A DNA stretch of 59,534 nucleotides, the filler included, from Basidiobolus ranarum (taxonomy: Eukaryota): the NCBI GenBank assembly GCA_040143965.1. It is 5 parts of 5 records of this genome, joined end to end, with 100 filler letters (N's around TTAATTAATTAA, not from the genome) between each part and the next. Parts side by side here need not be neighbours in the genome. Positions count along the whole stretch, not along the records: positions 47,723 to 59,534 come from JASJQH010007462.1; 4 more parts are not named here. One strand, 5' to 3'. The translations under genes were made by a program, and so were the position numbers. Below, one piece after another: positions 2,668 through 52,163 of the stretch (its first letter is position 1; each line of letters begins with the position of its first letter). Under the pieces are notes generated by a model. It worked only from the letters and a program-made list of their open reading frames with translations, was not told the origin of the DNA and ran no database searches.

Positions 2668-4224
2668 CTACTTATGAAATCTATTTTGTTTTTTCATTCT
2701 TGTACTTGACGGATGACTTCGAGTACGCATTCTCCATTCTAAATATTGTGGATAGCTTTCCTTCCACAGCAGATGATAAACTTCTTCCAAGGCCTTGTCG
2801 TACCAGTCCATAGAGATCTCCGTATTTTCATACTTTCGTTGGATTTCTTCACGAATTATCGTATTCAATTCAATCCTCATATAAGCTTCTTGGTCAATAA
2901 AGGCCTTGTAAATTCCTTTCAACTCGTCAATCACCCAAGGTTCAACTTTCTCTTCAGCTTTGGCATCTGGTTCAATCACTACCATGGTCTCATTAAGTTC
3001 AAGGATGGAATCTTTGGGGATCGGGAGAAACTCTGAAACCTTAAGTTCATTTTTTGAATATTCCAAACGTCGGGATAAAATTTGTAGATCTCTACATCTT
3101 TCGTAAAATAGTGCGTAGTTCACTGTGAATTGGTCAGAGGTGAATTTTTTGAATTCTTCGAAGAGGAAAGGCGTTTGAAGTATCTGATCAAATTGTAACT
3201 GCTCAGTGGCCACTAGCTTAGCTTCCCTTCGAAGTTTGATTCGAACATAGAAGAGTGGGTAACATACGGAGGTTATGTGAATGCTAATTAAGCCCACAAG
3301 AAGCCAAAAACTAGGTGTTAGATAAGGATCTAAAAAATCTAACCACGATGTGGTGGAGCTAATAATTTGTAAGATAGTGAACAATAATCCCAAACCCAAG
3401 GTAGTCAGATATTCTTCACGCATATGATGCACGTCTCGAACCCCGCGATGAATGAAAAAAGCGAATATCAACAATCCGAGCAAGTACAAGATTAATAATC
3501 CTATTAATGGATATGTTTGCCAGAAGATTGGGCATCGGCCATAGCTGGTAATCGGTGTTGCATCCACTTGAGTTAAGAAATGGATACTTGTGGTATAAAT
3601 AAGTTGCAGGATCAAAGTACCGAAGATAACCATGACGAGAAAGCGTACAGTAAATAAACTACGGTGCCGATAATACCAATTACGACTAAGGAGTTTGTAT
3701 GTATCGAAGCTATCAAATAATTCTGCTTTCGATAAGCGCACCAAGCTATGAACATATTCACCTCTCCTTTTAACTGGCTCAGGATCTTTCGTTTTAGCGA
3801 AAGCAAAATGAGTGTAAGAAGCTGGACTAGAAGCCACAAGTAGTTCTGCCTTGTTCAGATGATATAAAAAAGCCAACCGAACGAACTTCCCAACAGTGCA
3901 GAGTAGGTAGAGACTTAGACTAGGATTAAGTACCCAATGGATGAGATTACAAGAAAAGTAAGGGATTATTAATTCCCAGAGAAATATGAAGGTAATGATC
4001 GTGATAGCGGAAATTGCTCCCAAAAAAGTTAGAGTGGTGGATCGAAATTGGACGCTAAGGATATTTCTATTGTAGATAAATAGCAATGTGGTCGACAAAA
4101 TAAAGCCATTAATCAGCACTATCAAGAGATAATTAAGCGTATACGAACGATTCATATCCCAATTAGTCGATGGGGAGCTAGAAGAGAAGATGGTGTAAGT
4201 CAAAAGATATGGAAATTCAGTCAT
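2668..4224 (-). CDS. Seven-transmembrane protein with a C-terminal RGS domain (GprK/RGS1-like GPCR-RGS)
   Basis: Intronless 518-aa ORF with about 7 hydrophobic segments, followed by FDQILQTPFLFEEFKKFTSDQFTVNYALFYE...IYKAFIDQEAYMRIELN...YDKALEEVYHLLWKESYPQYL, an RGS-domain pattern. Confidence 0.85.
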   Translation of the reverse strand: MTEFPYLLTYTIFSSSSPSTNWDMNRSYTLNYLLIVLINGFILSTTLLFIYNRNILSVQFRSTTLTFLGAISAITIITFIFLWELIIPYFSCNLIHWVLNPSLSLYLLCTVGKFVRLAFLYHLNKAELLVASSPASYTHFAFAKTKDPEPVKRRGEYVHSLVRLSKAELFDSFDTYKLLSRNWYYRHRSLFTVRFLVMVIFGTLILQLIYTTSIHFLTQVDATPITSYGRCPIFWQTYPLIGLLILYLLGLLIFAFFIHRGVRDVHHMREEYLTTLGLGLLFTILQIISSTTSWLDFLDPYLTPSFWLLVGLISIHITSVCYPLFYVRIKLRREAKLVATEQLQFDQILQTPFLFEEFKKFTSDQFTVNYALFYERCRDLQILSRRLEYSKNELKVSEFLPIPKDSILELNETMVVIEPDAKAEEKVEPWVIDELKGIYKAFIDQEAYMRIELNTIIREEIQRKYENTEISMDWYDKALEEVYHLLWKESYPQYLEWRMRTRSHPSSTRMKKQNRFHK

Positions 4225-6183
4225 TCTGTACAGACGTTATTTACAAATTACATTTAATATAGACTGCTAGATACTCTTTCAAGTGGACAAGTGACGAGCA
4301 CTAAAGCAACGAGATGTTCGAGGGGAATATATCAAAATTCGGTTGCTTCAGGCGTTACAGTTGAGTACCTATCGTCCCGAGTTGTTCATCAAGTGCGAGA
4401 ACAGCTTTATTTATGAGATCTTTGACAGGAACAGATCTGCGCATAGAATATGCATCGAGCTTTGTTGATCCTATATAACCCATTCAAATCTGTAAATCAT
4501 ACAATTCAACTTCCCTCATAAAAGATCGGTTATGTTTAGAGAATAATATCCTAGAAGAGATGAACTGTAGTCTATTCAATCCGTAATACATCAAACTCAT
4601 AATAGCCAAAACAATAGAAAGATGTGAATGGGTTGCGCTCAACTAGATGTAAGATAATGTTGAGACTCGAACAATCTCAACACGTACGTCAATGAGGGCG
4701 ACCCACTCGTAACAAACTGTGGACATATAGAGCGAATTGTAAATGGGCCGACGAGAGGTCTAACAACTGTAACTGCATGTAAGCCTCGTAATTTTAAATG
4801 CTTGCTTCTTTCCCGGTCAAAATTCACCAGTCATATGCAATGGACCAACAAAGATCTTGAAGGAAATTAATCCATGAAGTAATCAGAAGTACTAGATTAT
4901 TGCGTCAAAGTTTGGCTGAGCCACACATAGCAGCTTACAATCACGTTTGATAAAAGAAAATTTTCAATTTGAAACAATCATCAACTCATAAGCCTCATAA
5001 ATGATATGCTTACTGCAAATGCTGATCTCGATATTTCCCGAGGCGCACAAGAAAAAGAAATACCCTACTTTACAACCGAGCACAATAGCCGACTTCAATT
5101 ATATTTTATGCGATATACCCTCTTATTGACTAAAGATGATCAGCTTACTACGCAGATGGCACGATGTAGTTCACAAAGATTACTACTGCTTTGTGTTGAA
5201 GACAGAGAAGACTTGTTAGTACCTCCACATATGACCACTCCCCCCAACAGTAACGTCAGCCAAATGATTGATAGAGAGTCGGTATGAGTCATACTACTTG
5301 TCTTGGTGAACAAATAAATTTTCAATGTAAAAGGATTGGGATTACTATTACTATTCGGAAAGTTGCGCCGAAGTCAATAATACTTTAGTTATTTGATATG
5401 CTCTGCAGTGGCGAAAAAGAAGACAGTATGGGAAAATCACTTCTGAACCTCCATTGTTAGATACCTGTTTAGTAAACGTGGATTGACTGGGTGATACTAA
5501 CACATATCTACATATTTGGGCACATCTCACCACTAAATTATGATTCTACGCTAAAACTATGATTTGTTTCATATTCTTAAGGAATCCCTGCATGTTGAGA
5601 GCAGTGGATGAGAAAGAATTTCCAAAATTTATATTAGCTTTGACATTTTTATTCTTCAGGCGAGGATATTGGGGATCATACTCTACTTGTTGCCGTACCA
5701 CCTTCCTAACTGGCGCTGTCTCACCAATTGCTCCTAGTTGAAGTATTTTCTCAGGGCCACTTTTCAATATATGCCAAGAATGAGGATTCCGGAATTTTCT
5801 TTTCTAATCTATACGTCCATAACCGCTCTTGTGAGAGGTTAGGATTGATTAAAATGATATACAAGTCAAGTACTAGATATAAATACCTATGAAATAGCTA
5901 GGTGGTATATATATCTTACGTGATGGGAATATCTAACCAAGTTAGCCATACTGGTCCAAAAACCATCAGGAGAGTAGTGGCAGATTAGCTTTAGTTTCCA
6001 ATTACTCAACATTACACATAAGTGTCTATTGACCAATTTGGAAAAAAAAAGAAAACCTGCATCAACAGATGCATATATAATTGGGCTCACAAGTGTTATA
6101 GTCGATCATCCTGCATGTGCTTATACTCTTCACTGTATTAGAGCTCGAGTCTTTCACAGTTGGCGCTATAACGAAGAAGTTTA

Positions 6184-11852: not shown

Positions 11853-11952
11853 NNNNNNNNNNNNNNNNNNNNNNNNNNNNNNNNNNNNNNNNNNNNTTAA
11901 TTAATTAANNNNNNNNNNNNNNNNNNNNNNNNNNNNNNNNNNNNNNNNNNNN
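11853..11952. other. Artificial contig spacer 1 (N44-TTAATTAATTAA-N44)
   Basis: Identical 100-bp block occurring four times; the core gives stop codons in all six frames. Confidence 0.97.
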
Positions 11953-23789: not shown

Positions 23790-23889
23790 NNNNNNNNNNN
23801 NNNNNNNNNNNNNNNNNNNNNNNNNNNNNNNNNTTAATTAATTAANNNNNNNNNNNNNNNNNNNNNNNNNNNNNNNNNNNNNNNNNNNN
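23790..23889. other. Artificial contig spacer 2
   Basis: N44-TTAATTAATTAA-N44. Confidence 0.97.
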
Positions 23890-32400: not shown

Positions 32401-35400
32401 AACTAGAGATCCTATCTTGTCATTCTTCAAAGGATTTTTAGCCATAATCAAGGTATCATCGATGAGAACTCGTATGGCAAATCAGGAATAGTTGCTATGA
32501 CACATTTCGAAATCTGGATGTCTACTCTATATACTTGCTATGCCATAAAGTCGCAGCGAGAGCCTGCCTGGCTTATTGGTAATATCCGTACCGGATGGAA
32601 TCCAGAATTGTGCCTTCCTAATCTATTCAGCGTGAATCTCAGTAGGCCCATTAATTCCTACACTGGTGACACAGTTATTGAGAAGCAAAAATCCATCTTG
32701 AGATGCTTTATAATATGTGCTTTGTTCGTATAAACTGGGTAAGTCAAATGGGTAGAACCAAGTGCTGATACACATAAAACCATAACTTAAAGATAATTAA
32801 CACTTCACGTACAAGGATTATATCTTGTAGATTTCTCAGAAGTTAGCAGCTCATTATTAACTAGCTTAAGAATTTCCTTCAAGGCACATGGATGTCAATT
32901 CCAGCAATTACACACAGGGGTGACTTTTTCAGGTGGTGTTAGCTGCCCAATATTAGACATATTTTCTATCGCGCCAAAATCTCAAAATCTCTTAATAAAC
33001 ATAATTGAACTTGTTTGCCCGCTCTTACGAGAAGCAACTAGCACCATTTATAAACAATGTTCCCGAGCTGGATGTCTAAGCAGATTATTATTTGTCTTTC
33101 ATCTTACTATAGTAAACAAAAGCCGATGATTCAATACCTTTATACTCAAGTTTTATATTATGAACTAAATATATCCTATAAACAATGTAATAATTAGCTG
33201 CTAACGAAGTGATTTGGATCCAGGGCAAAAGTCGTTTTTTCAAATTATATGGTAACATTATTACGGTGGCTTGGTTCACATTCATACAAAATTCCCCCTT
33301 GATAGGCCACATTTCTTATATCAAAATCTGGCAAAATCACTTCAGATTCTTGCTTCTGATCACTACCTTGACTAAATAATAACCTGGTGAGAATCACTAA
33401 ATGTTCTTGGCCTAAATTCCTACCTCGTATATAAGGGCGTACATACCTATATTCTGCCTCTCAAACCATACTCTTCACATACTACCAGCTAGTCAAGCGT
33501 TGCTTGTTCATCCCACCCAAGACCGTGATCTAGTAAGACAGCTTTTTACAACTTCAGATGTATCAAGTGCAAATCGAACTCGTCTTTCACCAAGCCCTAA
33601 GCATGTCCTTATCTAAGTCATTGTAAATGACAGCAATTGTGAAAATGAATGCCCTAATATTAGTGAAATCAATGAATCTTTTGGATAAGGCTTCCATTGG
33701 TACTGATATATTTCTAACCTAAATACCGACCCGAATACTCCGTTGATTATCATTAAAGATATCTCTAAGTTAATGAAATAGTTGATCACGAACTCAGTGT
33801 TCTAAGATCGATATAACTATCTATACATATATATGTACTCATAAACATACATATGTAAGTGCCAAACGACTATGCTAAGAACACTTTACTTACTCGAACC
33901 TCGTTTTTGTTCGTTAAAATATTAGTTGCAGCTCCTTGTGGCAGATACTTTAATCGCCAAAGAGGTGAAATGCAACCAGAACAATCCACAGGCAACAATC
34001 GAAATCAGACCTCTTCTGGCAAGTAGCCAACAAGCGTCGAGGCTCAACCCGAGTAAATTCCGTTGCTCAAACAAGTGTTTACTACTGTTACTGGAAACCC
34101 TTATAACTTGAGTAATGTGAATATAAATGGACAAAACAATCACAGCCTACTGAAGCAGAACATCCTCCTTCACCAGAAGAACCCGAATCCTCAGGCTCAA
34201 TGTGTCTTTGATGTAATTAATCATATGATCTGTGACCTATTTACATATTATGTAATTAGCATATAGTCATTAACATCACGTATTAAGCAATAAATCATCT
34301 AAAGGTTAAAAGTATTAGCAATTCATTTGACGTCTTCTAAGTAATGATTAGACTGCGAAGGCCATAGTAAATTTCGAGGTAATGGTCTCATCTTGTATTC
34401 ATATTTAAATGACACTCATCTACTCCAAATCCCATAATTTTGAACAGCGAGAAAATTCCTCACTCATATATATTTAGATACAATATCTAGATAAGAGGTT
34501 AGATTTTACAATGAAGATAGTCCTACGTGAACTTGTGCCATTCTTGTGTGAAAATTTCGAGTAATATAATTGTATAAACGTAGTACAAGTCATTTTGATC
34601 TGATATTTTTATCCGTAGCATTAAACCAGGCCTAAACAATGCTAAAATATTATTATATATATCTCTAGTGATATGGAATATTTCATGTCATTGTCTCCTT
34701 GTATAGTACCCATTTCGGACAAAAATGGTGAAAAAATAATTATTTTGAGCTCGTTAATATCCTACATTCCCACAATAGTAAAAGCAAGAGAATTATTATT
34801 TATATATAGGGTTATTGTCCATCGTAGTATTGACTATGAAATAAATATCTACGTTACAAAATGCCATTCCTGTGCGCATATGTCAAGCCACTACTTGAAA
34901 ATACGTTGGATGAGTCTTTTGAATAAATCATGAAATAACCCTCAGGGTAACTCTAACCTAGTCTTTTACATAAATATATGAAGTATTGAAGGTATAAGCA
35001 GTTTGTTGATTTTGATTACCCGAGGTATTATTTGTATTGTCCAAGGTGGGTTTGGTTTATATCGCTAGTGGTACAGGTTCTAAATTAAAACTTAAATTAC
35101 TATAAATCCTACTGAACACCACATATTTGTCATATCTGCAAATTGGTACCTTTATATAGCGCTTATGAAGAATTTTATCATTCGGGTAGAATGGCATCTA
35201 CCCGTAACCTAAGCTTCTGAGCGGGTGGTTGGGTAGAGGCTTGAGTAGCAGTTCTCCACTGATGGTTGTTATCCATGTCGAGGATGTTGTCCCCTGGAGC
35301 TTAGTGTTGACATTGATAAAGCCGAGTAATCGGGAGGTGTCAAGGCTATTGAAGACTTAGGAACGCGTGAGACTAACAACATGGCAACGAAAACCAAGCG

Positions 35401-35708
35401 CACTGGAGCAGTCAGAAGTTTACAAATCTGAGTGGATGGTCATCAGTAGCTGCTATAATAAAGTTTGGTACCAACTATTTTCATACTTTCAATATTTTGG
35501 AATAATTAGCGCTAAACATAGGAGATTGATGGGTGTGATAGGTGACAATGTAAAATCTCAAAAGCTTTTAATGCTGCAAAATGCTATATTTAGCTTCTAT
35601 CTTATAGTTTATCATTGCACTTATAGATCAATAATACTTCGCTAACATTTTGTTTATAATCTATGATGCAAATGTACTAATTTCACAACCGTTGTCTTTC
35701 TGAACATT

Positions 35709-35808
35709 NNNNNNNNNNNNNNNNNNNNNNNNNNNNNNNNNNNNNNNNNNNNTTAATTAATTAANNNNNNNNNNNNNNNNNNNNNNNNNNNNNNNNNNNN
35801 NNNNNNNN
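35709..35808. other. Artificial contig spacer 3
   Basis: N44-TTAATTAATTAA-N44. Confidence 0.97.
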
Positions 35809-47622: not shown

Positions 47623-47722
47623 NNNNNNNNNNNNNNNNNNNNNNNNNNNNNNNNNNNNNNNNNNNNTTAATTAATTAANNNNNNNNNNNNNNNNNNNNNN
47701 NNNNNNNNNNNNNNNNNNNNNN
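47623..47722. other. Artificial contig spacer 4
   Basis: N44-TTAATTAATTAA-N44. Confidence 0.97.
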
Positions 47723-48265
47723 CTTTTTGTCTGATTGTATTTGGTTAATTAAACTTGAGAGCCTCATTTTTCTAAAAAGTAACTAAACACTAGTACGCGT
47801 GTCTTCTCCTGCAGGGTGATCTTCATTTGAGTAATATGCTCTCATGACCGGAGTGACTTTGGCTTTTTCTTGAAGATACGTAGCAAACTTGCCTTTGTTG
47901 GCAGTTGAAGATTTCAAACGTGATAGGAAATGCTCAGCTCTGGTGACTTGGTCTGTCTTTAAGTACTCTCTGAGCTTCCTGAATTTTCTGTACTTTGTTT
48001 CAATTACTTTTTGGTTGCTTGTATATCGGTAAGCCATTTTGTTTTCAGCGGTACTTTCTTCGTGCATACAGTACAGCAAATCGCGACGTCCAGGATCATT
48101 TAGCACACAATTGCCAACACTAGCCTTCAATTCTTCTCTTCCCAACTTCTCCACATACTGAAACTCCTCTTTTGAAGCAAGAGACTTTGATTTTGTGCCA
48201 CTGCTACCCTTCTTCTCTGTATCATTGTTTTGCTTTAACACCGACACACCTACACCATCTGTGTA
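47723..48265 (-). mobile_element. Fanzor1/TnpB-like nuclease fragment 1 (TDG motif through RuvC-I and the following helical region)
   Basis: TDGVGVSVLKQ...FQYVEKL...CVLNDPGRRDLLYCMHE...YRYT...AE..LS...FRKMRLSSLINQIQSDK. One TAG at 47783; cut by the contig edge. Confidence 0.85.
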
Positions 48266-48521
48266 CTTTTCAGACCTGAAAGGATTGTATCCAATATTGT
48301 TTGGTCCCATCAGATGCACATATTTAACTCTACCTGACTGTTTGAAGAATTCAGCACTATTCTGGAACATTTTGTCAACCAGAGCTTGGTCAACTCCATG
48401 GTTTTGGAGATAAAAGAAACCTATGTTCGTGCTAACCTCACCCACTTACTTTGCGCACTCTTGCAAGTTGGTAGAAAATAGAGAAAGATTAAATTACAGG
48501 TATTTCGGTGAGGTGTGGCAT
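48266..48521 (-). pseudogene. 5' remnant of a 2OG-Fe(II) dioxygenase (DIOX_N) gene
   Basis: MPHLTEIPVI[fs]NLSLF...CAK*VGEVSTNIGFFYLQNHGVDQALVDKMF..SAEFF...K...NIGY. One frameshift and one stop; interrupted by Fanzor sequence. Confidence 0.8.
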
Positions 48522-49397
48522 TAGAAATGGCTAGCTAACTAGTGAAAGGATGATAAGGCTTTATAGAAGATCTTGGTAATGATAAGCATGTGAGTGTTCC
48601 GAGTGGCAAGATGTGAAGGAAAAACATTGCCGATCTGCAGCTTTATTTGAGTGGGGTTTCGACATCATCCTATCCATTGCATTTCTCACCAAGGATAAGT
48701 ATATAACAGATACACATAAGTTCATTTGTATACTATTCACATAGATTGGTTTAGATTTATGGAGTTGAAAGCTGCCCAGTGGGGTTATCATCATTTCCTC
48801 TATCAGTCTACAAAGGGTCGTTTAGATTTTCATTCATTTGCTTAAACTAGTCATCTCTCTCCTGCCAGAGAAGTGTGACAATGAAGTTACTTAGGAGTAT
48901 ATCTATACAGCTCAAATCTTAGTTATTGGGTTAACAAGTTTGTTCAAATTGCATAATTGTTGATCAACTCTATATGTAAAGCTCGGACAATAACTATTCC
49001 CACTTTCAATCTAGTCTGATCGAAATCACTTCTAGCGTGCTATCTCACCAATCTCAATGAATTTACACTCGATGTGAAGGCCGTCCGACATGTCTCTCAC
49101 AGCTTCCATGAGATCAGAATTCTAGAGCATTCTCCAATACCATCTAAACATCTGTAAATGGTGACTAGCTTCCTCAAAAATAGATCCCTATCATTTGGCG
49201 AAGTCACGCGCTTCCCAACCATCGTAGACCATTGGTCGCGCTATAGCTCTCGAATCAGACCACCGTTGGATGTGATGGGATGGAATAGAGATTCTACAAC
49301 AAGGGATTCGATCATAACATAAACATTGAAAAGCACCAAACTTTATAAAGGTTCGTCCCACTGACTTCTTTGCCTTTCCGTAACCACTTAGAAAGAA

Positions 49398-50090
49398 ATG
49401 AATATTAAAGAGGAACCAGTGAAAAATGAGAAAGAAACCCGAATAACATTGAATATCGGCGGAGCAAGATTCGTCACCACGTTGGAAACAATTCAAAAGT
49501 ATCCGGATACAATGCTGGGTCGTATGTTCGCCGTAGAAAATCGAGAACTCACTAAACCAAACGACAAGGGAGAATACCTCGTGAATTACAGTCCTCAATG
49601 GTTCGATCGTATACTGAGGTTTTATCGGACTGGTCAGCCTGTACCTCGACCTGTAGATATTGATCCATCATTTGAGGATGCCTTGGATTTCTGGGCCATT
49701 CCATCGGCAACTGTCATAGAACAACTAAACATAGAAGCAAGTCAAATCTTGGAGGAATTCTTAGACGGGGTGATAGAGGTGATGTTCACAGCAGTCAAAA
49801 ACTTTCTTCCTAAAGTCAAGATTATTTTCGATTCACTCTACGACGTTCGATTTGAGCCTAAACTTCTTACCGTTCATGAATCGATTAAAGTTCAATTTCG
49901 TAATGGTTATAAAATTCTAAACTCTTCAGCTAGAGTCATAGTTGGGATTCAACTGAGAAAAATCCTTTTTCCAGCTACTTTATCCATTGTATACACTTAT
50001 GGCTCACCTGAACGTTTTCACTTATCTATAGAAAACTACTTGAACTTTGATACCATTTCGAAAAATTTGGCTTATAACCCTATTGTATGA
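49398..50090 (+). CDS. BTB/POZ (KCTD/T1-type) domain protein
   Basis: RITLNIGGARFVTTLETIQKYPDTMLGRMF...EYLVN...FDRILRFYRTG...ALDFWAI; intronless 230-aa ORF. Confidence 0.9.
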   Translation: MNIKEEPVKNEKETRITLNIGGARFVTTLETIQKYPDTMLGRMFAVENRELTKPNDKGEYLVNYSPQWFDRILRFYRTGQPVPRPVDIDPSFEDALDFWAIPSATVIEQLNIEASQILEEFLDGVIEVMFTAVKNFLPKVKIIFDSLYDVRFEPKLLTVHESIKVQFRNGYKILNSSARVIVGIQLRKILFPATLSIVYTYGSPERFHLSIENYLNFDTISKNLAYNPIV

Positions 50091-50225
50091 CCCTTTACAG
50101 TGTTTTAATCTAAAATGGGATGAATTAAATAAATCAATTAGACATTTCATAAAATAAATTCGAGATAAGCTTAGACACATGGCAAAAGAAACTTACTCTG
50201 TATTAAATGTTTAGTGTAGCGATAA

Positions 50226-50860
50226 TCACACAGGATGGTTTGCTTTTTGAGTTTATCGACTGCTGCTAGCCGACGAAATACCCTTTCTTTTATACCTGGT
50301 GGAAAGAGGTTCCTTCAATCTGCAAAAGCGTTCTGGTCTTTCCCAAGTTGAGCGCAAGTTAAAAAGGATATGTCAAAGTAGCAACCAGGTCACGGCTCCA
50401 AAGATGAAGGGGAAAATCTTCAGTAGTATTGGCCGCGACCTTTAAATATTGTTGGTTTTAGCACCTGAACAGAAATTAGGTTTGAATTTTTTACTTGCAT
50501 ATAAAAAGCGTTTACCTTAAAAGACCACAATAGGATACTTTTCTCTTTTGTATGGTCTAGGATTTTGGATTTTTTGAAACTTTTCCAGTTCACCGTTCTG
50601 GCAAGTAGGGCACAGACTTGAAGTTTTAAACTCGTCAAGGTGGTATAGCTGGATGCCTTCTTTGGCCAACATTTTCTCATTCCGACGCCTCTATTGGGTT
50701 CATAATACTTTTCATTTCCAGCCCACCAGTCACCAAGTATTAATATAGTATTTTTCCCAAACTTCTCCCAAAGACTCTTGGCAAGCCGTTTGTCTGATTG
50801 TAGTTGGTTAATGAAACTTGAGAGCTTCATTTTCCTAAAGGTAACAAACTGCTGGTAGTT
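50226..50860 (-). mobile_element. Fanzor1/TnpB-like nuclease fragment 2 (RuvC-II, zinc finger, RuvC-III, C-terminus), pseudogenised, one intron at 50465-50515
   Basis: FRKMKLSSFINQLQSDKRLAK...KFG...LILGDW...EPNRGVGMR[fs]LAKEGIQLYHLDEFKTSSLCPTCQ...NPRPY...GLLR|C*NQQY...LWSRDLVA[fs]HIL..LR....RPERFCR...KRK. Confidence 0.88.
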
Positions 50861-51248
50861 ACAAGCTAAACTCATGTTCCTGAAAGCTAATTATATATTA
50901 TAAAGAAATAGGGTTTTCACTCTTTACCAAATTGTATGGAGGGCCAGTGTTTGATTTTGAATGCTCCCAGCAGGAGTGAGTCCTAGTAACAATCTATTTA
51001 TTGCTATAAGACATACTTCCTATCTTGGAAATATTGATGATTTCAACTTTGATCTATTTAGGATGTATTTAAGCTTAAATAATAGTAAAAATTGAATAAA
51101 TTAGCTACAATATATTGAAGACTAAAGCAACTATATGTAGACAAGCTCCTATAGCATTGCAATTACAAGTGTATTATATTTTGCAATTTAATTTATTAAA
51201 AGTACAACTAGGACGTGACAGTGGGTTCTGATGCAATGAGTGATAGAC

Positions 51249-52163
51249 TTACTTCTTGAGTTCCCAGACACTACCCTGATCCTCGTGCAGAGCTTCATCT
51301 GGGCTCCACTTGATTAAAGACTCGAATACAGCACGTCCCGCCTTCTCTTCAAGATCAGGAACGATAGTGTGATCGATAAATTGGTTAGTCACTCTATCAG
51401 CGAACACCATCATGGATGCTCCACAGTGGATACTCTGGTTATTCTTCTTCTCAGTTAACGGAGCCGAGGTTGTACAATGTGCAAGGTGATAAAGCATAAA
51501 AGTCTCCATCTCAAGTGAAACAGCGGTGGGTAGTTCCTCACGAATAACCTGGAACAGGTTCTCTTTGGCATCAACGAAGTTCTCGTCCACACGTCCCTGA
51601 GATGAGTAAAATGAATCTGCGGTGATGTTCACTCCGTTATGAACCTTTTCTTCACCGAATACCTGGGTTAATTCCTGAGTCAAGAGATTAGATAAGGTTT
51701 CATCTGCTGGGAATTCCATGGAGATGTCGTATGGCTTTTGGACCTTCGAATTGGGTGCAAAGTAGTTGTAGTTACGAGTGAGTGCGACAGAGCTGGTGGG
51801 AACCATAAACTCCCCAGGCTTAGCTCCATTCAATGAGCCACATGAGCCGAGACGAATGATGCACATGGGTCCATCGACCACTGCACGTACCTCACGTACA
51901 AAGAAATCCATCATGGGGATTCCCATACCAATAGCTACGATACTGACTGGAATTCCCTTATAACGACCGGTTGCGGTGTAGAAGCCTCTGTGAGAACTCA
52001 TCTCGAACACAGGATATTCCGAGTCAAGGAATTGGGTAAGACGTTTAGCACGGGCTGGATCTCCTACAGTGATCATGCGATTGGCAGCCTCCCCACGCTT
52101 TAACTCTACGTGGTATGTGCGACCGTCAAGGGAGGTAGGAAAGTTGGCATTAGCGAAAACCAT
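51249..52163 (-). CDS. Uridine phosphorylase / PNP-UDP family nucleoside phosphorylase
   Basis: ITVGDPARA, SHRG, GMGIPMMD, IIRLGSCGS, TADSFYSSQGR and LEMETF motifs; intronless 304-aa ORF. Confidence 0.92.
   Translation of the reverse strand: MVFANANFPTSLDGRTYHVELKRGEAANRMITVGDPARAKRLTQFLDSEYPVFEMSSHRGFYTATGRYKGIPVSIVAIGMGIPMMDFFVREVRAVVDGPMCIIRLGSCGSLNGAKPGEFMVPTSSVALTRNYNYFAPNSKVQKPYDISMEFPADETLSNLLTQELTQVFGEEKVHNGVNITADSFYSSQGRVDENFVDAKENLFQVIREELPTAVSLEMETFMLYHLAHCTTSAPLTEKKNNQSIHCGASMMVFADRVTNQFIDHTIVPDLEEKAGRAVFESLIKWSPDEALHEDQGSVWELKK

Follow-up and report, generated by a model that had tools for sequence, protein, structure and literature searches.

Introduction

The gene family to which the locus reported here belongs is already described: it is the Mucorales-type Fanzor1, recorded in 2013 and represented by a solved structure, that of PpFz1 from Parasitella parasitica, since 2024. 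In the 2013 account, four Fanzor1 families are listed for Rhizopus oryzae, ten for Mucor circinelloides and three for Phycomyces; the C-terminal motif order is given as [TS][TS]-x-x-C4 zinc finger-x(5,50)-RD, and 5'-truncated copies are reported for other Fanzor1 elements (PMC3627910). Introns are common in Fanzor genes, as are nuclear localisation signals (PMC10530073).

PpFz1 (PDB 9cf0-9cf3) is the best solved match both for the two searched pieces of a Fanzor1 fragment from Basidiobolus ranarum, hereafter copy A, and for the full-length relatives of that fragment. The two have the fungal Fanzor1 group in common and share the layout of RuvC-II, zinc ribbon and RuvC-III. They differ in that PpFz1 is active, with its structure solved, DNA cutting shown and a TAM of 5'-ATN (PMC11423790), whereas copy A, judged by the lesions listed below, is dead. 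PpFz1 also carries an insertion of about 100 residues in RuvC, the FRI domain, which binds cyclophilin. This domain is absent from the Rhizopus relative P0001 and from a second Basidiobolus fragment, copy B; where P0001 and PpFz1 are aligned, the chain position jumps from 986 to 1092 against P0001 residues 365-375.

Closest of all are the Fanzor1 elements of Rhizopus, comprising the ROr families of R. oryzae RA 99-880 (PMC3627910), the proteins P0001 and P0002, and the metagenome locus L001. They resemble the Basidiobolus relics at 68-74% in protein and 77-79% in DNA, and in intron site and terminal repeat sequence; the difference lies in the host, which is a member of the Mucorales in one case and Basidiobolus in the other. 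One of these families, ROr-4, was assigned to MuDR with 9-bp duplications (PMC3627910), whereas L001 has TA at both ends. Much weaker similarity connects copy A to SpuFz1 (PDB 8gkh), the product of Spu-1 in Spizellomyces punctatus, the repeats of which measure 30-33 nt as against 135 nt in L001 (PMC10432273, PMC3627910). Partial copies are common in that genome: 19 of its 42 Spu-1 loci are full-length (PMC10432273, PMC3627910).

That Fanzor has spread among eukaryotes is a proposal made so far only in a general way (PMC10432273). In the library searched, no full text mentions both Basidiobolus and Fanzor, and the supplementary host lists of the surveys may still name Basidiobolus.

Results

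The analysed DNA

The window, by which we mean the whole 59,534-nt stretch of B. ranarum DNA, is made of five separate contigs in decreasing order of length (11,852, 11,837, 11,819, 11,814 and 11,812 bases). Features that flank one of the linkers between them are not genomic neighbours. Copies A and B both lie on the last contig (47723-59534), and a search of the window for further copies of the element, or for its repeat tips, found none beyond these two. The remaining contigs hold ordinary eukaryotic genes, for an RGS protein, a methionyl-tRNA synthetase, a V-ATPase subunit and a PAS protein; a tRNA scan found none. The features that frame the analysis are as follows.

11853-11952, 23790-23889, 35709-35808 and 47623-47722: four linkers, each N44-TTAATTAATTAA-N44
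35181-35479, plus strand: SRP RNA gene (Rfam Metazoa_SRP model, 94.2 bits, E 1.4e-22)
49392-50090, plus strand: BTB-domain gene, stop codon TGA at 50088-50090
51252-52163: uridine phosphorylase gene, about 0.4 kb from copy A

The repeat tip of copy A (50098) falls 7 bp past the stop codon of the BTB gene, the two being on opposite strands. This means that the 3' untranslated region of the BTB gene must extend into the relic.

A Fanzor1 C terminus spread over three frames

The fragment and its coding part are delimited as follows.

50096..50866, minus strand: copy A, the entire relic of a Fanzor1-carrying transposon with terminal inverted repeats (TIRs), 5'-truncated and with its 3' end kept, by blastn to L001
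50229..50866, minus strand: coding remnant, equivalent to P0001, the relative from Rhizopus, from about residue 372 to residue 577

The range of copy A includes the flanking TA at 50096-50097, and its 5' limit (about 50866) is set by alignments. When the 577-aa P0001 of R. arrhizus was used as a tblastn query, residues 376-577 aligned to 50848-50229. The preliminary description had placed the remnant at 50226-50860; that core stands, while the relic as a whole runs from about 50866 down to the repeat tip at 50098 and does not end at 50226.

From 50866 to 50229, three minus-strand frames have to be combined to read the C-terminal third of Fanzor1. The reading opens in one frame, ...YQQFVTFRKMKLSSFINQLQSDKRLAKSLWEKFGKNTILILGDWWAGNEKYYEPNRGVGMRK, and passes to a second, MLAKEGIQLYHLDEFKTSSLCPTCQNGELEKFQKIQNPRPYKREKYPIV. 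In the third it gives CGLLR, a 51-nt interruption, and then C, a stop and NQQYLKVAANTTEDFPLHLWSRDLVATL, after which the second frame resumes with ILFNLRSTWERPERFCRLKEPLSTRYKRKGISSASSSR, a stop, TQKANHPV and a further stop. Along this path lie ILILGDWWAG, LDEFKTS, CPTC, CGLLR and C on either side of the intron, WSRDLVA, RPERFCR and YKRKG, so that every motif named in the preliminary description (GDW, LDEFKTS, CPTC, GLLRC, WSRDLVA, RPERFCR and KRK) was recovered on the minus strand. Of these, LDEFKTS contains the Glu of RuvC-II and WSRD the Asp of RuvC-III; CPTC ... C/Y forms the zinc ribbon, and KRK belongs to a basic tail. The published motif order appears as LDEFKTSSLCPTC ... C(stop)NQQ(Y) ... 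WSRD, with the last Cys mutated. The basic KRK patch, a putative localisation signal, is conserved in the relatives from Rhizopus, Helicostylum and Basidiobolus.

Comparison to the chains of the PDB gave direct matches to two experimentally characterised proteins. The piece at 50517-50690 matches P. parasitica Fanzor1 with an E-value of 3.1e-12 and S. punctatus Fanzor1 with 3e-4; for the piece at 50669-50875 the values are 1.6e-10 (PpFz1) and 0.012 (SpuFz1). Four pieces of copy A were also compared to Pfam. Three were without a match and the fourth gave a sub-threshold hit to PF07282, Cas12f1-like TNB (E 3.4e-4; 21.2 bits against a cut-off of 26.3). Pfam by itself would have left the identity of copy A undecided.

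Full-length relatives and a reference element

A protein search with copy B found 17 proteins among 81 candidates. The best named matches come from Rhizopus arrhizus, R. delemar and R. microsporus, followed by Helicostylum, Phycomyces and Coemansia, and the relatives carry the precomputed label PF26935.1. The family is large: at E<=0.001 it comprises 2,735 representative proteins, of which 323 remain at E<=1e-30. Full-length relatives match the solved Fanzor1 chains far more strongly than do the pieces of copy A: P0001 gave 1.6e-140 to PpFz1 and 3e-50 to SpuFz1, and a profile of eight sequences (A3) gave 5e-165 and 1e-62. With either of these queries, PDB searches taken up to E 10 returned only Fanzor1 chains, with no TnpB, Cas12 or Fanzor2 among them in the profile search, and an identity as Fanzor2 or as IS607-type TnpB was rejected. 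On the combined strength of these matches and of the direct matches to PpFz1 and SpuFz1, copy A is identified as a Fanzor1 gene of which the C-terminal part remains, as the preliminary description had proposed.

A scan of metagenomes produced 326 pattern matches and one confirmed locus, L001, which is the sole complete reference element; one locus is too few for an analysis of covariation in the omegaRNA region. L001 lies on a metagenome contig of 4,815 bp and encodes a protein identical to P0001. The element measures about 2.9 kb and is bounded by TIRs of 135 nt (1721-1855 and 4446-4580) that are 89% complementary. Its Fanzor1 gene starts near 2220 and contains a 59-nt intron (4038-4096) inside codon R490, the Arg of GLLRC. 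Within 2220-2440 we observed a one-base slip in a T run near 2430, which splits the N-terminal approximately 70 codons from the rest; owing to this slip, P0001, the public model of 577 aa, takes a Met farther downstream as its start, and the full protein would have about 690 aa.

Upstream of the element, L001 1-906 contains the end of an open frame, which we take to resemble a tyrosine-recombinase (Crypton-like) transposon protein. A perfect inverted repeat of 43 nt (975-1017 and 1192-1234) is also present in this upstream part. No transposase was seen. A TA dinucleotide stands at both tips of L001 and at the tip of copy A, and it stands within a palindromic tip in the one complete element; with a single reference element, neither a Tc1/mariner-like duplication of TA nor the exact ends can be taken as proven.

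Intron and lesions of copy A

Aligned to the Rhizopus-type reference, relative to which all lesions were called, copy A shows one intron and a series of disabling changes, here in the order of reading.

50673..50674, minus strand: 1-nt deletion in an A run, first frame change
50527..50528, minus strand: 10-nt deletion removing the VDRH codons, second frame change
50465..50515, minus strand: intron of 51 nt, phase 2, GTAAAC...CTAAT...CAG, within the Arg codon of GLLRC
50458..50460, minus strand: premature TAA (from AAA) where relatives have Lys (CKNQQC)
50377..50378, minus strand: 8-nt deletion, third frame change
50253..50255, minus strand: second premature stop, 9 codons ahead of the ancestral stop

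The interruption of 51 nt occupies the same site, R490 of P0001, as the intron of L001. Over 51 aligned bases the two are identical at 43 (84%), with GT...AG ends and a CTAAT branch site. By position and by likeness, then, it is an inherited intron, and the preliminary description was right to remove one here. Its count of two frameshifts was too low, since alignment to the reference yields three frame-changing deletions, of 1, 10 and 8 nt. Two further deletions, of 12 and 6 nt, are in-frame. Four codons after the TAA the fourth zinc-finger Cys has become Tyr (TGT to TAT, 50446-50448), and the ancestral stop codon is at 50226-50228. At the other end, tblastn with full-length relatives found no match upstream of 50866 on the contig, which leaves the first 370 or so residues missing.

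A functional nuclease of this type has a full frame, the RuvC D-E-D residues and four zinc ligands. In copy A, RuvC-I is absent and the remainder bears three frameshifts, two stops and the Cys-to-Tyr change. These lesions bear out the earlier statement that the copy is dead, 5'-truncated and interrupted by TAA at 50458-50460. With neither RuvC-I, nor a left repeat, nor an open frame, copy A is incapable of making a nuclease and of being excised by two ends.

That the gene is really intact and its breaks are errors of assembly or sequencing in a fragmented draft seems to us scarcely credible. The assembly is indeed one of contigs of about 11.8 kb, and one lesion is a 1-nt homopolymer change; this deletion in the A run could be an assembly error, and the others not. 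Deletions of 10, 8, 12 and 6 nt, two stops produced by substitution, a Cys-to-Tyr replacement and the absence of the 5' two-thirds are atypical of read errors, and B. ranarum relatives show different lesions of a similar kind.

The 5' limit of copy A, at about 50866, coincides with the point at which the FRI domain is inserted in PpFz1, and this is probably a coincidence. We considered whether an FRI-type domain might be hidden beyond this limit and rejected the idea: the nearest gene in that direction is 360 bp off and the interval holds no open frame.

A second fragment

The same contig begins with a second Fanzor1 fragment on the same strand.

47723..48280, minus strand: copy B, 5'-truncated, carrying DPGRRD of RuvC-I and aligned to P0001 over residues 211-396
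47786..48370, minus strand: chimeric frame of 195 aa, in which copy B continues in frame from the end of a dioxygenase N-terminal domain

Copy B is 69.5% identical to P0001 over 187 aa (tblastn) and 79.3% identical to L001 in DNA over 545 nt (blastn). A single TAG (47783-47785) interrupts its frame, and the fragment stops where the contig does, at 47723, as is typical of a repeat that breaks an assembly. The ORF at 47783-48445 matches Pfam DIOX_N with an E-value of 3.7e-12, and the remainder of the dioxygenase gene is absent from the contig. The chimeric frame has entered public protein sets as P0209, the window's own protein, and shows how such relics contaminate gene sets.

The possibility that A and B are halves of one split insertion was rejected: they share about 60 nt of element sequence in which they differ, and they follow each other on the strand in the wrong order. 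The differing overlap makes A and B separate insertions, and an independent copy 2 kb from copy A on one contig indicates that the family was multi-copy in the B. ranarum genome.

Two further members are known as proteins. The top match for the middle piece of copy A is a degenerate B. ranarum protein of 181 aa, 84% identical (one match of three candidates), and a second degenerate B. ranarum protein, P0266, matches copy B at 70%. All four Basidiobolus-type copies seen (A, B, P0018 and P0266) are degenerate.

The retained 3' end

Beyond the old stop codon, copy A has a region shortened by about 90 nt, followed by the terminal 60 nt or so of the right repeat.

50098..50158, minus strand: remnant of the right TIR, matching both TIR arms of L001 (1721-1783 and 4533-4580)

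On the plus strand the tip reads CAGTG from 50098, with TA before it at 50096-50097. The match over 50096-50158 identifies copy A as a Fanzor1 carried in a eukaryotic transposon with terminal repeats. By analogy with SpuFz1 (PMC10432273), the tip at 50098 is also where an omegaRNA scaffold would end.

The relic might have been put to host use, either as a ghost guide-RNA locus for a Fanzor encoded at another site or by providing the BTB gene with its 3' UTR and terminator. We regard such use as very improbable. In Spizellomyces, loci that have no protein but still possess a functional omegaRNA are reported (PMC10432273), and here some 60 nt of the right repeat have been kept with the BTB stop codon (50088-50090) only 7 bp from the tip; on the other side, none of the four Basidiobolus copies seen is an intact Fanzor. 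Nor does the 3' region of copy A carry a fold signal. Compared to shuffled sequences, the 3' end of copy A folds no better (z +1.06) and that of L001 only slightly better (z -1.40), neither being significant, and an Rfam search of the locus at a permissive threshold gave nothing but a chance sRNA match (E 1.7), the SRP RNA gene being the one Rfam match elsewhere.

Divergence of the element and of the host

As a yardstick of host divergence we used one protein, the uridine phosphorylase of the window. Its identity to two proteins of Basidiobolus meristosporus is 84% and 86%, against 46% to R. microsporus and 45% to R. stolonifer. By blastn, copy A is 77.5% identical to L001 in DNA over 618 nt (50272-50849). 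Third codon positions of the relics are 74% identical to those of L001, and the intron 84%. In protein, copy B is 68% identical to P0001, while P0001 and P0004 of R. microsporus are 64% identical over the same columns; to P0001, Helicostylum stands at 56-63% and Phycomyces at 39-43%. Identities of 77-79% in DNA, together with that of the intron, set against 46% for the host enzyme, argue for horizontal transfer.

Trees were built for both ends of the protein. In the C-terminal tree copy A pairs with P0018 of B. ranarum (98/96); the pair stands beside R. arrhizus/delemar (90/91) and is nested in R. microsporus (88/89), Helicostylum being the outgroup and the nodes that place it inside Rhizopus having support of 88-91 and no higher. 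The N-terminal tree puts copy B into one polytomy with the groups of Rhizopus and of Helicostylum, from which Phycomyces and Coemansia are cleanly separated (100/98).

Taken together, the identities and the trees suggest that the Fanzor1 TIR transposon probably moved horizontally between the R. arrhizus/delemar lineage and Basidiobolus, and then multiplied and decayed. Such a transfer, which may have run in either direction or through a third party, is the simplest reading. Viral contigs scanned with profile A3 gave 90 pattern matches, none confirmed, and accordingly provide no candidate for a viral vector.

Vertical inheritance, by which an old and slow-evolving Fanzor1 family would have come down from the common ancestor of Basidiobolus and the Mucorales with no transfer, seems to us unlikely. 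It would draw on the wide occurrence of Fanzor1 in early-diverging fungi (PMC10432273), to which the 2,735 representative proteins at E<=0.001 also attest, on the capacity of paralogous lineages within transposon families to mimic an odd placement in a tree, and on the polytomy in which the N-terminal tree leaves copy B. Slow evolution would nonetheless have had to hold third positions at 74% and an intron at 84% identity across phyla, between hosts whose enzyme is 46% identical in protein. It would also have to accommodate Phycomyces (39-43%) and Helicostylum (56-63%), which are farther from Rhizopus than is copy B at 68%.

The Rhizopus-like character of the fragments might instead reflect contaminating Mucorales DNA or a chimeric contig, given that Rhizopus is the name borne by every one of the closest full-length relatives. 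This we consider negligible as an explanation: in DNA the fragments and the Rhizopus-type element agree at no more than 77-79%, the fragments lie 0.4-1 kb from Basidiobolus-like genes on one contig, and two proteins named as B. ranarum fall in the same group. Horizontal transfer remains the reading that we prefer.

Discussion

Considered jointly, the data give us high confidence that copy A is an inert relic of a Mucorales-type Fanzor1 transposon, that its family was multi-copy in B. ranarum and that the family most likely reached one or other of the two lineages, Rhizopus or Basidiobolus, horizontally.

The ancestral element may be pictured on the model of L001, with about 2.9 kb of DNA, TIRs of 135 nt, TA flanks and an intron at the GLLRC site. 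It would have been a non-autonomous cut-and-paste DNA transposon with a single gene, for a Mucorales-type Fanzor1 RNA-guided endonuclease. RNA from the element would read into the flanking DNA, which would serve as guide, and the complex of protein and RNA would cut matching DNA beside a short motif. Copy A retains only the final third of this gene, together with a right end that has been shortened. It has lost the left repeat, the promoter, the WED, REC and RuvC-I parts, the frame on three occasions, two codons (to stops) and one zinc ligand.

As a source of nucleases the locus is worthless: it is a dead fragment of a type for which a structure has been solved and activity shown. For the mining of this genome for nucleases, it is pertinent that the copies seen so far are degenerate in four cases of four. 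Copy A is in itself ordinary, and wider interest attaches only to the likely transfer of a transposon across phyla. With these relics, the Rhizopus-type Fanzor1 element is placed in a genus, Basidiobolus, that belongs to a different phylum from the Mucorales. If the transfer is true, it would constitute a concrete and datable case of the spread of RNA-guided nuclease elements from eukaryote to eukaryote, across fungal phyla.
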